This document shows positions 450 through 5,208 of a DNA stretch of 63,416 nt, piece by piece. The stretch comes from Minisyncoccota bacterium (GTDB lineage Bacteria > Patescibacteriota > Microgenomatia > UBA1400 > PJMF01). Under the pieces are notes generated by a model. It saw only the letters and a program-made list of their open reading frames with translations, was not told the DNA's origin and made no database searches. Location: NCBI GenBank assembly GCA_018646985.1, contig JABGTR010000002.1, forward strand, positions 1 to 63,416. The letters run 5' to 3'. Made by a program: the position numbers and the translations under genes. The number at the start of each line of letters is the position of its first letter. Position 1 is the first letter of the stretch.

Positions 450-479
450 TTGACAAGTTAAAACTAAAAGAACTACAAT
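450..479 (+). promoter_or_regulatory. Sigma70-type promoter of the trp leader
   Basis: TTGACA at 450-455, 18-nt spacer, TACAAT at 474-479, directly upstream of the leader ATG at 490. Confidence 0.7.
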
Positions 480-489
480 ACACCAACTT

Positions 490-555
490 ATGACAAGTTC
501 ATACACTCACACCAGCTTTTGGTGGACCGGCCGCTATCTATGGCAGTGCGGTTAG
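490..555 (+). CDS. trpL: Trp attenuator leader peptide (21 aa, MTSSYTHTSFWWTGRYLWQCG)
   Basis: Not in the ORF track; translated by hand. Tandem TGG TGG at 520-525 plus a third TGG at 541-543, between the promoter and a terminator upstream of trpB. Confidence 0.8.
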   Translation: MTSSYTHTSFWWTGRYLWQCG

Positions 556-579
556 TTTGTAGTGTATTAAAAATTTGAC

Positions 580-605
580 AACCCGCATCGCTAGCGGGTT
601 TTTTT
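580..605 (+). terminator. Attenuator (intrinsic terminator) of the trp leader
   Basis: AACCCGC(580-586)-7 nt loop-GCGGGTT(594-600) followed by T5. GCGGTT(548-553) can pair alternatively with the 5' arm, and CCGC(531-534) with GCGG(548-551). Confidence 0.8.
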
Positions 606-665
606 ATGGACCAAAGGTCCGTGAAACACCCAATCAATTAAATTAATTAAAGAAAGAAAAATATT

Positions 666-2943: not shown

Positions 2944-3267
2944 ATGATTAATATTGATGATTTTGCCAAGGTAGAAATTAAAGTGGGTTTAGTAACTCAA
3001 GCTGAAGATGTAGAAAAAAGTAATAAGCTGATTCGCCTGCAAGTAGATTTTGGCAAAGAAGAACTTCGGACTATTTTTACTGGCGTGAGAACCTTTGGTT
3101 ACGCCCCTGAAGATTTCACAGACAAACAATTTCTATTTGTAACTAATCTTGAACCTCGCAAAATGATGGGTGAAGAATCTCAAGGCATGATTTTGGCTGT
3201 AGATGGGCAAGACAAGCCATTTTTTGTGACTGCAGCGGGTTTACCACTCGGAGCAAAAGTTAGTTAA
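2944..3267 (+). CDS. OB-fold tRNA-binding protein (MetRS C-terminal / Trbp111 / CsaA family)
   Basis: INIDDFAKVEIKVG, KLIRLQVDFG and NLEPRKMMGEESQGMILA signatures. Confidence 0.85.
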   Translation: MINIDDFAKVEIKVGLVTQAEDVEKSNKLIRLQVDFGKEELRTIFTGVRTFGYAPEDFTDKQFLFVTNLEPRKMMGEESQGMILAVDGQDKPFFVTAAGLPLGAKVS

Positions 3268-3291: not shown

Positions 3292-5208
3292 ATGACAGAT
3301 AAAAAGAAACCTACTAAAAAAACTCCAGCCCCCAAAAAGGGTAAAAAAAACCAAGTTCCTATTAAAAAAGTAGAGCTAAAAGTTGATTTAAATAAATTTT
3401 TTAGTAAAGGGTTTATTTATCTCATTCTTGGTCTGCTCTTCGTCCCATTTTTGTTCCAGTTATTTTCTGGTGGTTCTAGTGAGCAGATCTCCATTAGTCA
3501 GTTAGTACGTGACATCCGTGAAGAAAAAGTAGAAAAACTAGATGTAGCCGGTCAGCAATTACGAGCTCATTATATTGAAGATGATCAAGTCAGAGTCGCT
3601 CGCAAAGAAGAGGGTCAGCAAGCTTTACAAGTTTTGACTGCCTCTGGGATTGATTTGGCAGAAGTAAATTTGGAGATCGAGAATCTTTCTTTTGGTGACA
3701 TGTTATGGGAATTAGTATTGAATTTATTACCAATTTTATTAATGGTAGTTTTCTTCTTATTTATTTTCCGTCAGGCACGAGGAGCTCAGAATGGTTTGAT
3801 GAATTTTGGTAACAGCAAGGCTAAAGTTTTTGTTAAAGGTAAGCAGAATACAAGCTTCAAAAGCGTAGGTGGAATGGATGAAGCCAAAGCTGAACTCGAA
3901 GAAATTGTTGACTTTTTGAAGAATCCTAAAAAATATCAAAAAGTAGGAGCTCGTACTCCTAAGGGAGTATTGTTGATTGGTCCAGCCGGGACTGGAAAAA
4001 CATTATTGGCACGAGCCGTAGCTGGTGAGGCTAAAGTTCAGTTCTTATCTATTGCTGGGAGTGAGTTTATGGAGATGTTAGTCGGCGTTGGTGCTTCCCG
4101 GGCCAGAGACCTCTTTAAGACTGCCAAAAAACTATCTCCATCAATCATTTTTATTGATGAAATTGACGCCATTGGTAGGCAAAGAAGTCGCGGTGGTGTG
4201 GGAGGAAATGATGAGCGAGAGCAAACTTTAAATCAAATTTTGGTAGAAATGGATGGTTTTACTGCTAATGATAATGTGATTGTAATGGCCGCGACTAATA
4301 GGGGTGATTTATTAGACCCTGCTTTAGTTCGTCCTGGTCGCTTTGATCGTCGAGTTACAGTTCGTCTCCCAGATCTAGAAGAAAGAGCACACATCATCAA
4401 GATCCATGCTAAGAATAAGCCTTTCACTAAAGACTTAAACTGGGATAGAGTCGCTAAACGTACTGTTGGTTTTTCTGGTGCAGACCTAGAAAACATGCTC
4501 AATGAAGCGGCCATTGCGGTGGCTCGTGACATTCGCAAGGAAATTAAATTTACTGACATCGAAGAGGCTTCACTAAAGGTTAAGTTAGGCCGAAGTAAAA
4601 AACGACTTCATGATGAATATGAGCGAAAGCTGACTGCTTATCACGAGGCTGGACATGCAGTGATTGCTCATGTCTCTGCGCATGCAGATCCAGTTCACCG
4701 AGTTTCGATCGTTTCCAGAGGCATGGCTCTGGGATACACTTTAACTCCCCCAGAAAAAGACAAGGTCCAGGTGACTCGCTCTGAGTTGCTTCAAGATATG
4801 ACGGTTATGTTTGGTGGTCGAGCTGCTGAAGAATTAATTTTCAATGAGCTTACTGCTGGAGCTAGTAGTGATATTAAGCGGGCTACTCAGATTGCTAGAT
4901 CAATGGTGGTTGAATATGGGATGAGTGATTTAGGGCCAATGAACTTTAGTCCCCAATACGATGCCGATAGCTATGGTGGTATCTACGGAAAGCCATCTGA
5001 AGTCTCTGATAGTGTTCAAGCTAAGGTTGATGGAGAAATTTCTAAGTTAATTAAAAATGCAGAAACTGAGTCAGTTAAGTTATTAAATAAATATCGAAAA
5101 CAGTTAGATATTATCGCTCTGAAACTCTTAGAAATAGAGACTTTAGATGCTGATGAATTTACCCAATTAATGGGGATGAAAAAAGCTAAGCCTGCTATAC
5201 TTAAGTAA
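3292..5208 (+). CDS. ftsH: ATP-dependent zinc metalloprotease FtsH
   Basis: Two N-terminal TM segments, GPAGTGKT Walker A, IIFIDEID Walker B, ATNR/RPGRFDR second region of homology, HEAGH. Confidence 0.97.

Follow-up and report, generated by a model that had tools for sequence, protein, structure and literature searches.

Can a bacterium with little metabolism of its own sense its supply of tryptophan (Trp) and adjust the transcription of a single biosynthetic gene to that supply? The question is raised by a stretch of 63,416 nucleotides (nt) from a Minisyncoccota bacterium, contig JABGTR010000002.1 (hereafter "the window", meaning the whole stretch that was analysed). Near its beginning, the spacer in front of trpB (the gene for the tryptophan synthase beta chain) holds a promoter, a short leader open reading frame (ORF) rich in Trp codons, and an intrinsic terminator. 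The Candidate Phyla Radiation (CPR, or Patescibacteria), to which this locus belongs, is regarded as a group of host-dependent bacteria with minimal metabolism and few known regulators, and to our knowledge almost nothing is known about its gene regulation. On the basis of comparison between relatives and of predicted RNA folds, we consider it likely that the element is a ribosome-mediated transcription attenuator, which would sense charged tRNA-Trp and control a stand-alone trpB.

Promoter, leader and terminator in front of trpB

The features of the element, from the promoter to the hairpin just beyond the terminator, are the following.

450-455, + strand: -35 hexamer TTGACA, part of a promoter match at 11 of the 12 consensus positions
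474-479, + strand: -10 hexamer TACAAT, separated from the -35 hexamer by an 18-nt spacer
490-555, + strand: leader ORF of 21 codons plus stop codon, encoding MTSSYTHTSFWWTGRYLWQCG, with its ATG 10 nt past the -10 hexamer
504-510, + strand: 5′ arm of helix A, AUACACU, pairing with 562-568 (RNAalifold)
520-525, + strand: tandem Trp codons TGG TGG, the putative regulatory codons, invariant in nine lineages
529-534, + strand: region 1, GGCCGC, the anti-antiterminator arm, pairing with 548-553 in the minimum free energy and RNAalifold structures
541-543, + strand: third Trp codon TGG, invariant, where the predicted extended antiterminator has its 5′ end
546-553, + strand: core of region 2, GUGCGGUU, comprising the last codons and the first base of the stop codon, with region 1 or region 3 as partner
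562-568, + strand: 3′ arm of helix A, AGUGUAU (RNAalifold)
580-586, + strand: region 3, the 5′ arm of the terminator, AACCCGC (folding, RNAalifold)
587-593, + strand: loop of the terminator, AUCGCUA, where the extended antiterminator has its 3′ end (masked folding)
594-605, + strand: region 4, the 3′ arm of the terminator, GCGGGTT (594-600), with a T-run of seven T (599-605)
606-620, + strand: second hairpin, ATGGACC-AAA-GGTCCGT, directly past the T-run of the attenuator

The promoter (450-479) is the best-scoring site in the first 6 kb of the window. The expected 5′ untranslated region of the leader is about 3-5 nt, and no purine-rich Shine-Dalgarno sequence precedes the ATG at 490; initiation at the leader would thus be leaderless-like. 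An initial annotation, made by a model from the letters of the window, had described a promoter, a 21-codon leader with a WW pair and a third W, and a terminator at 580-600 followed by five T. All of these are present as it described them, and its suggestion that the leader is translated almost leaderless agrees with the spacing in relatives: the distance from the -10 hexamer to the leader ATG is exactly 10 nt (..CAACTT) in eight lineages (20 nt in the lineage represented by L092; labels of this kind denote loci in relatives).

The module occurs directly before trpB in the window and in eight further independent lineages, nine in total, the TrpB proteins of which are 72-89% identical to that of the window: L081/82, L083/84/85, L086, L087/88, L089/90 and L193 (85-89%), L215 (74%) and L092 (72%). 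All nine have TTGACA, 18 nt, and TAnAAT (TAGAAT, TAAAAT or TACAAT). The leader ORF is unbroken in all relatives, with 21 codons in the seven closest lineages, 22 in L215 and 23 in L092, and the C-terminal consensus of its product is ..WW[TSN][GS][RCH]Y[LRP]WQ[CR]G followed by the stop codon; the WW pair and the third W are invariant throughout. The terminator, (A)AACCCGC-loop-GCGGGTT(T) plus T-run, has been kept in all nine, although in L092 its stem is TCCCGC/GCGGGA, with U-A instead of A-U as the outermost pair. A homologous locus lacking the Trp codons or the terminator, which the initial annotation had named as evidence against an attenuator, was not found among these lineages. Divergence is seen upstream of the promoter, in the N-terminal codons, in the terminator loop and past the terminator. 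In L083 and L086, extra ORFs have been inserted after the integrase gene that lies upstream, and the module has remained attached to trpB.

The pattern of substitutions in seven lineages bears on whether the leader is translated. In codons 2-10 there are 7, 8 and 6 variable sites at the first, second and third codon positions, respectively, and 17 amino-acid replacements, with no stop codon or frameshift despite this free variation. In codons 11-21 the corresponding numbers of variable sites are 4, 0 and 5, and the changes in the codons for R-Y-L-W-Q are all synonymous (CGC/CGT, TAT/TAC, CTA/CTG/TTG, CAG/CAA). This last pattern is not explained by RNA pairing, because Y and L are encoded in a hairpin loop. 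Thus, the substitution pattern, together with the preserved frame and length, argues for translation of the leader ORF.

Two further observations concern the same stretch. The 9-mer TGACAAGTT is present twice, at 451-459 over the -35 hexamer and at 491-499 as leader codons 1-3 (aTGACAAGTT); the repeat has not been kept in relatives and is probably due to chance. A second promoter at TTGACA, 575-580, was considered and rejected: no suitably spaced -10 hexamer accompanies it, and it has not been kept in relatives.

Alternative RNA structures and the proposed switch

The terminator hairpin, formed by regions 3 and 4, has a predicted energy of -10.6 kcal/mol. Region 2, within which GCGGTTA is invariant, can pair with region 1 or with region 3, as the initial annotation had also supposed, with two differences in extent. 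The "pause stem" that it had drawn between 531-534 and 548-551 is predicted as part of a 6-bp helix, 529-534/548-553, inside a hairpin of -8.2 kcal/mol. A pairing of region 2 with region 3 is likewise predicted, but the form first drawn for the antiterminator (548-553/580-586) would require C582 to bulge out, and its 2:3 hairpin by itself is worth only about -5 kcal/mol. The predicted antiterminator consists instead of 546-551/583-588, 541-544/590-593 and 555-557/577-579, with an energy of -12.8 kcal/mol, and takes in both the terminator loop and the third Trp codon, which in the fold of the stalled state pairs with loop bases 591-593. When eight aligned leaders were analysed with RNAalifold, the consensus contained four helices: helix A (504-510/562-568), a small helix that includes the WW codons, 529-534/548-553, and the terminator. 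Helix A comprises 7 pairs, one of which is altered on both sides, and encloses the 1:2 hairpin in the untranslated leader.

The effect of a translating ribosome was modelled by masked folding, in which the nascent RNA, ending at the last base ahead of region 4, was folded with the ribosome-covered stretch masked. In the window, without a ribosome, region 2 is locked by region 1, and the probability of pairing between regions 2 and 3, P(2:3), is 0.03. With the A site of the ribosome on the first or second W (mask to about 532-535), the antiterminator forms, with P(2:3) of 0.80. With the ribosome on the third W or on the stop codon, region 2 is covered, P(2:3) is 0.00, and region 3 is free for the terminator. 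These are the three states expected of the trpL-like switching that had been proposed for the element. The same three-state switch is predicted in L086, L193 and L092, and a weaker one in L083 (0.47 without a ribosome, 0.80 with a stalled one).

The mechanism that we infer from these folds, in which the start of transcription, the stalling of the ribosome, the kinetics and the response to Trp are all conjectural, would operate as follows. RNA synthesis from the sigma-70-type promoter would start at about 485-488, so that the AUG would lie about 3-5 nt from the 5′ end, and the 21-codon leader would be translated without a Shine-Dalgarno sequence. If Trp-tRNA were plentiful, the ribosome would reach the stop codon (553-555) and cover region 2 (here 541-553); region 3 (580-586) would then pair with region 4 (594-600), and RNA polymerase would terminate at the T-run, at about 605. 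If Trp-tRNA were scarce, the ribosome would stall on UGG UGG (520-525) and cover region 1 (529-534); region 2, thereby freed, would pair with region 3 and the terminator loop (541-551/583-593), the terminator would be blocked and trpB would be transcribed, possibly with read-through into trpS, the next gene downstream. If there were no translation at all, the 1:2 hairpin would form, closed by the helix 504-510/562-568, and the terminator would form as well, i.e., superattenuation.

This logic is that of the enterobacterial trp leader, trpL, with which the window element has in common a short leader ORF with tandem UGG codons, a 1:2 anti-antiterminator, a 2:3 antiterminator and a 3:4 intrinsic terminator with a U-run, a stop codon beside region 2, and a terminator that is favoured thermodynamically and would have to be governed by a kinetic switch. 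In contrast to trpL, the leader ORF in the window has no Shine-Dalgarno sequence and is near-leaderless, 10 nt past the -10 hexamer; both a third Trp codon and the C-terminal peptide are conserved; the predicted antiterminator extends into the terminator loop; and the target is a lone trpB, possibly with trpS, rather than trpEDCBA. The Rfam family for trpL (RF00513, Trp_leader) matched the element with 29.2 bits against a cut-off of 41 (E=0.002), the best and sole sub-threshold match with E <0.01; the match rests on the terminator and UGGUGG, not on homology of sequence or structure. Thus, the window element is an analogue in a new lineage and not a member of the RF00513 family.

Several results weigh against an attenuator of this kind and lower our confidence in it. 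L081 and L089 are predicted to adopt the antiterminator even when no ribosome is present (P of about 0.8), and L087 does so to a lesser degree (0.19); a ribosome at the stop codon still disrupts it in these three lineages. There is no covariation between regions 2 and 3, the core antiterminator bases never varying in the family. The terminator loops of the lineages (AUCGCUA, AAGCU, UCUGCA, AUCGCC, AAGCC and CACUGC) each complement part of UGGCAGUG, and CACUGC, found in L092 and L215, is the perfect complement of GCAGUG. As the lengths and registers of the loops differ between lineages, covariation in a fixed alignment was not feasible and loop randomisation was used; for the extension into the loop it gave p of about 0.05-0.1 in five of the six distinct loops, which is no more than suggestive. 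Folding of the single sequence is unexceptional (z = -1.6), so that it is comparison with relatives, not folding energy alone, that shows the arrangement not to be due to chance. At equilibrium the full-length RNA favours the terminator even when region 1 is masked (P of about 0.75); therefore, switching has to depend on kinetics, as it does in the trp leader of E. coli. A stall at the conserved third Trp codon would favour termination, for which the simple model offers no explanation, nor does it account for the conservation of the aromatic residues in WW-x3-Y-x-W. The model assumes translation to begin at an AUG 3-5 nt from the 5′ end, and three metatranscriptomes from the study that holds DNA of this locus yielded no contigs over it.

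Recurrence at other trpB loci and rival explanations

If the leader works by codon sensing, other CPR genomes might be expected to have leaders before trpB that share Trp codons and little else. Metagenome contigs were scanned with a degenerate DNA pattern for the TrpB N-terminal motif FGx[YF]GG[RS]xVPP; the pattern also caught GGS-type TrpBs, which are not from CPR and served merely as a rough contrast group. At the 38 sampled loci of the GGR type, a short ORF with WW lies at most 250 nt upstream of trpB in 15, compared with 0.29 expected from shuffling and none on the reverse strand of the same loci. The recurrent leader peptides are unrelated to each other, e.g. MKTQSRTIIVWWNSLI, MKIINNNNWWTTFLW, MSLIKLSLWWRSIEAQSGDVLRA and MINLLFNNWWWRSSFLIQVEQ, and an intrinsic terminator comes after most of the WW leaders at these loci. 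Folding of these varied leaders with a ribosome stalled at W predicts upstream pairing of the terminator's 5′ arm (0.5-1.0), and with the ribosome at the stop codon this pairing falls to 0.01-0.45 in 16 of the 18 loci that were folded; the exceptions are L190, which has no difference, and L209, which does not fit. In one unrelated family, of Woesebacteria/Shapirobacteria type, the S-G-D codons of the leader (UCGGGAGA) repeat the terminator's 3′ arm letter for letter. Such convergent recurrence, one architecture built from different sequences, is what classically marks leader-peptide attenuation in comparative studies. Linkage to trpS is found at nearly all loci with a TrpB at least 65% identical to that of the window.

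The position in front of trpB is occupied in other ways as well. In six loci (L097, L143, L166, L210, L122 and L212) the order is promoter, Trp leader peptide, terminator, tRNA-Trp(CCA), trpB, trpS, i.e., a tRNA gene lies behind an attenuator that would sense its own charged form; the tRNAs were confirmed by Rfam and the CCA anticodon was read by eye. Four loci (L091, L096, L183 and L217) have T-box-like leaders (..AAGGTGGTACCGCC.. plus terminator) in the place of the leader peptide, with a T-box match in Rfam solely in L183, below threshold (31.8 bits against 93); in L091 (2100-2500) the order is T-box-like element, terminator, tRNA-Trp (2315-2388), WW upstream ORF (uORF), trpB. A gene of the Trp_repressor family (PF01371, TrpR/YerC-like) lies directly upstream of trpB in L216 (1115-1372), L145, L162, L188 and L209, and in L188, L209 and L216 a Trp leader and terminator lie between the two genes. 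In L170 and L108, where trpS and trpB stand in inverted order, the stretch between them contains a different, conserved short ORF, M..[LF]LYSKYCWR.. followed by a stop codon, which has one Trp codon.

L132 has tandem Trp uORFs in the 300 nt before trpB. The first, which encodes MKTQSRTIIVWWNSLI and then stops, has a terminator; the second, MHITWWTSRYQWRESL..., carries the peptide motif of the window in near-identical nucleotides, has no terminator and runs across the start codon of trpB, an arrangement which suggests translational occlusion of trpB. There is a precedent for sensory short ORFs that act on translation. In a report on mycobacteria (10.1101/834739), leaderless short ORFs with runs of cysteine (Cys) codons, forming a Cys "ribulon", are described as first cistrons in which stalling on the codon runs controls the downstream genes, the stalled ribosomes preventing the formation of RNA structure that hides the next ribosome-binding site. 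These ORFs resemble the window leader in placing a (near-)leaderless sensory short ORF first; the window leader differs in having a terminator and most likely acts on transcription. By analogy with that account, a translational mechanism of the mycobacterial type is plausible for the second uORF of L132 and for the leaders of L091 and L093.

Might the leader of the window, then, belong to something older and broader than an attenuator? It is conceivable, although we hold it to be rather doubtful, that the leader is part of an old CPR family of Trp-sensing peptides (WW-x3-[YF]-x-W), the chain or product of which would itself be regulatory, with outputs that differ by lineage: the terminator here, and occlusion of the trpB start in L132, L091 and L093. 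Together with the analogous leaders, such a family would control a "Trp supply" operon (tRNA-Trp, trpB, trpS) in other CPR. If this were true, sensing by the ribosome would become a central regulatory device of these minimal genomes.

A narrower version, in which the leader works mainly through its peptide, is unlikely. In this version the conserved WWxG[RH]YxWQCG would be a regulatory nascent peptide (by arrest or Trp sensing) or a functional small protein, with Trp codons that would not serve as plain "hungry codon" sensors and a terminator that would be one output platform of several. It gains from the exclusively synonymous changes in R-Y-L-W-Q, where the residues Y and L are free of pairing constraint, and from the recurrence of the motif WW..[RH][YF].W in distant trpB leaders without a terminator, namely the second uORF of L132 (MHITWWTSRYQWRESL...), L091 (..NWWQGHFLWR..) and L093 (..DWSCSRYLWRDFN, followed by a stop codon); moreover, the rhizobial leader peptide peTrpL is reported to have its own function (10.1101/606483). 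However, the residues between the aromatic ones vary in L092 and L215 (C, H, R, P); the codons for Q-C-G and the stop overlap region 2, so that constraint on the RNA accounts for part of the conservation; and the nucleotides are also highly conserved (L132 compared with the window), which, with so few lineages, makes selection on RNA and on peptide inseparable. The unrelated WW leaders elsewhere have just WW in common, as codon sensing predicts.

Codon sensing by an attenuator also has to be weighed against the idea that the 120-nt unit from promoter to terminator is an independent gene for a small RNA or small protein, with trpB transcribed from elsewhere and with both the Trp codons and the adjacency to trpB playing no part in its control. 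The unit does own a strong promoter and a terminator; attenuator RNAs can act in trans as small RNAs, as is described for rnTrpL in the same rhizobial report (10.1101/606483); and just past the terminator there is a structurally conserved hairpin, since the site corresponding to 606-620 holds hairpins of different sequence in relatives, with compensatory changes (L089 compared with L090, the window compared with L193), and none in L086. But no promoter-like site is present on the + strand in 606-665, a stretch which is not conserved except for the ribosome-binding region; the unit always lies immediately before trpB, regardless of the upstream neighbour; unrelated WW leaders recur specifically before trpB; and the alternative pairings overlap the terminator. 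An independent gene is thus very unlikely.

The terminator might also answer to something other than a translating ribosome, i.e., a T-box-type RNA, a TRAP-like protein or a TrpR-type repressor. Trp-specifier T-box leaders of Firmicutes (before trpS and trp genes) likewise read out the charging of tRNA-Trp through a terminator/antiterminator output, but their sensor is RNA that binds the uncharged tRNA, and the window has no T-box features. The sister CPR loci with T-box-like sequences (GGTGGTACCGCC plus terminator; L091, L096, L183 and L217) and those with a Trp_repressor-family gene directly upstream of trpB (L216, L145, L162, L188 and L209) speak for such a control, and UGGUGGACCGG in the window faintly resembles a T-box core. 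Against it, there is no match to RF00230 at E <=10 in 300-2100, the best ungapped match to the core has 4 mismatches in 12, and about 34 nt lie 5′ of the WW codons, which is insufficient for Stem I; 480-665 contains three isolated KAG triplets and no run of three or more, where a TRAP-controlled leader of the Bacillus type has 9-11 (G/U)AG repeats at spacings of 2-3 nt that overlap the antiterminator; no trpR-like gene adjoins trpB in the window or in syntenic relatives; and the ORF has a coding substitution pattern. Following these Rfam and motif tests, explanations by a T-box, TRAP or a known small RNA were rejected, and control of this group of kinds is highly improbable. Weakest of all, and next to negligible, is chance, in which the hairpin would be the terminator of the upstream xer-like integrase gene (133 nt past its stop codon at 447) and the short ORF unexpressed: promoter-like matches are indeed not enriched in the region (9 found, 12 expected), but the ORF, WW and the promoter with its fixed spacing have been kept across nine lineages, the module follows trpB despite the ORFs inserted after the integrase gene, and the enrichment statistics for WW leaders contradict it.

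Gene context and biological meaning

The genes around the putative attenuator are the following.

Stop codon at 447: xer-type integrase gene, inside which the window begins; a 218-nt spacer leads from it to trpB
666-1865, + strand: trpB, tryptophan synthase beta chain, 399 amino acids (PF00291; relatives are named tryptophan synthase subunit beta)
1953-2942, + strand: trpS, tryptophanyl-tRNA synthetase (PF00579)
2944-3267: gene with a tRNA-binding domain (Pfam labels of syntenic genes)
3292-5208: ftsH (Pfam labels of syntenic genes)

The nearest TrpB proteins that bear a name are all from Patescibacteria/CPR: that of a "Patescibacteria group bacterium" is 86% identical, and those of Pacebacteria, Microgenomates, CPR3, Shapirobacteria and Woesebacteria are 65-71% identical, whereas among the matches listed the TrpBs of ordinary bacteria are at most 61% identical. 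This supports the initial annotation, which had spoken of an apparent CPR genome. P0007 has the same gene order as the window and a TrpB that is 92% identical, and DNA of the locus has been found in marine metagenomes. No trpA was detectable by tblastn across the 63-kb window, and no tRNA, rRNA or other Rfam family was found in it at the curated (gathering) thresholds. Thus, trpB is a stand-alone gene for the last step, adjoining trpS, and the reaction would be the last step of Trp synthesis, presumably with indole from salvage as substrate. The initial annotation had called an amino-acid attenuator unexpected in CPR; this has to be softened, as a stand-alone trpB beside trpS, and Trp leaders before trpB, are widespread there.

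Whether trpS shares the control of trpB is less clear, and trpS may be co-transcribed with it. The spacer between the two genes (1866-1952) contains a conserved hairpin of 10-13 bp at about 1880-1908 (GGTGGTGACA / TGTCACCACC) with the conserved loop ACTTACCCC and with compensatory changes in relatives; it could be an RNA element or a palindromic operator. It is followed by the conserved TTAGATATAAT, with TATAAT at 1920-1925; therefore, trpS probably has its own promoter. A second Trp attenuator before trpS (FWW and a stop codon at 1877-1888) was rejected, as this frame lacks a start codon and relatives do not preserve the reading; the UGGUGG here belongs to the conserved hairpin arm. The E. 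coli pheST attenuator, with its pheM leader, is a leader-peptide attenuator placed ahead of the operon for an aminoacyl-tRNA synthetase. The comparison is apt if read-through in the window reaches trpS, as the operon layouts of relatives suggest; the amino acid is different, however, and trpS in the window has its own conserved -10 hexamer and a preceding hairpin, which makes co-regulation uncertain.

Further downstream, the ftsH genes of L093 (from about 5350) and L094 encode a 1072-amino-acid product with intein and LAGLIDADG domains (PF14890, PF14528), in contrast to the FtsH of the window (638 amino acids), which is intein-free.

The nearest biological parallel is the indole-salvage trpBA of Chlamydia trachomatis. 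Its trpRBA operon likewise belongs to a host-dependent organism with a reduced genome that has retained only the last step(s) of Trp synthesis, and its expression is linked to Trp through consecutive Trp codons, and a similar layout (trpR-like gene, spacer, trpB) is found in the CPR relatives L188, L209 and L216. C. trachomatis has no cis attenuation of the TrpL type, its annotated TrpL being atypical and unvalidated (PMC7755916); attenuation occurs instead in trans, through the WWW motif in YtgCR (PMC7755916). The CPR element differs in being a compact, canonical cis attenuator by its predicted architecture.

Full-text literature searches found no paper that connects attenuators, leader peptides or trpL with CPR/Patescibacteria, and a review of the biology of Patescibacteria mentions none of the three. 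As far as these searches go, the element is the first well-supported cis-regulatory switch of its type for CPR, where it would be widespread. The module is compact, about 160 nt with a sigma-70-type promoter, a near-leaderless 21-codon ORF and a terminator, and is thus amenable to work in E. coli or cell-free systems; it could also be adopted as a native part for gene control as genetic tools for Patescibacteria emerge. The relatives provide a natural series for the evolution of attenuators at one position, with members that have a leader peptide with or without a terminator, T-box-like leaders, a TrpR-like gene, or a tRNA-Trp gene inside the operon. For the organisms themselves, a conserved canonical attenuator would imply that transcription and translation are coupled in CPR cells, that the charging of tRNA-Trp is monitored, and that the retained trpB step, probably for salvage of indole from the host or community, is actively regulated.

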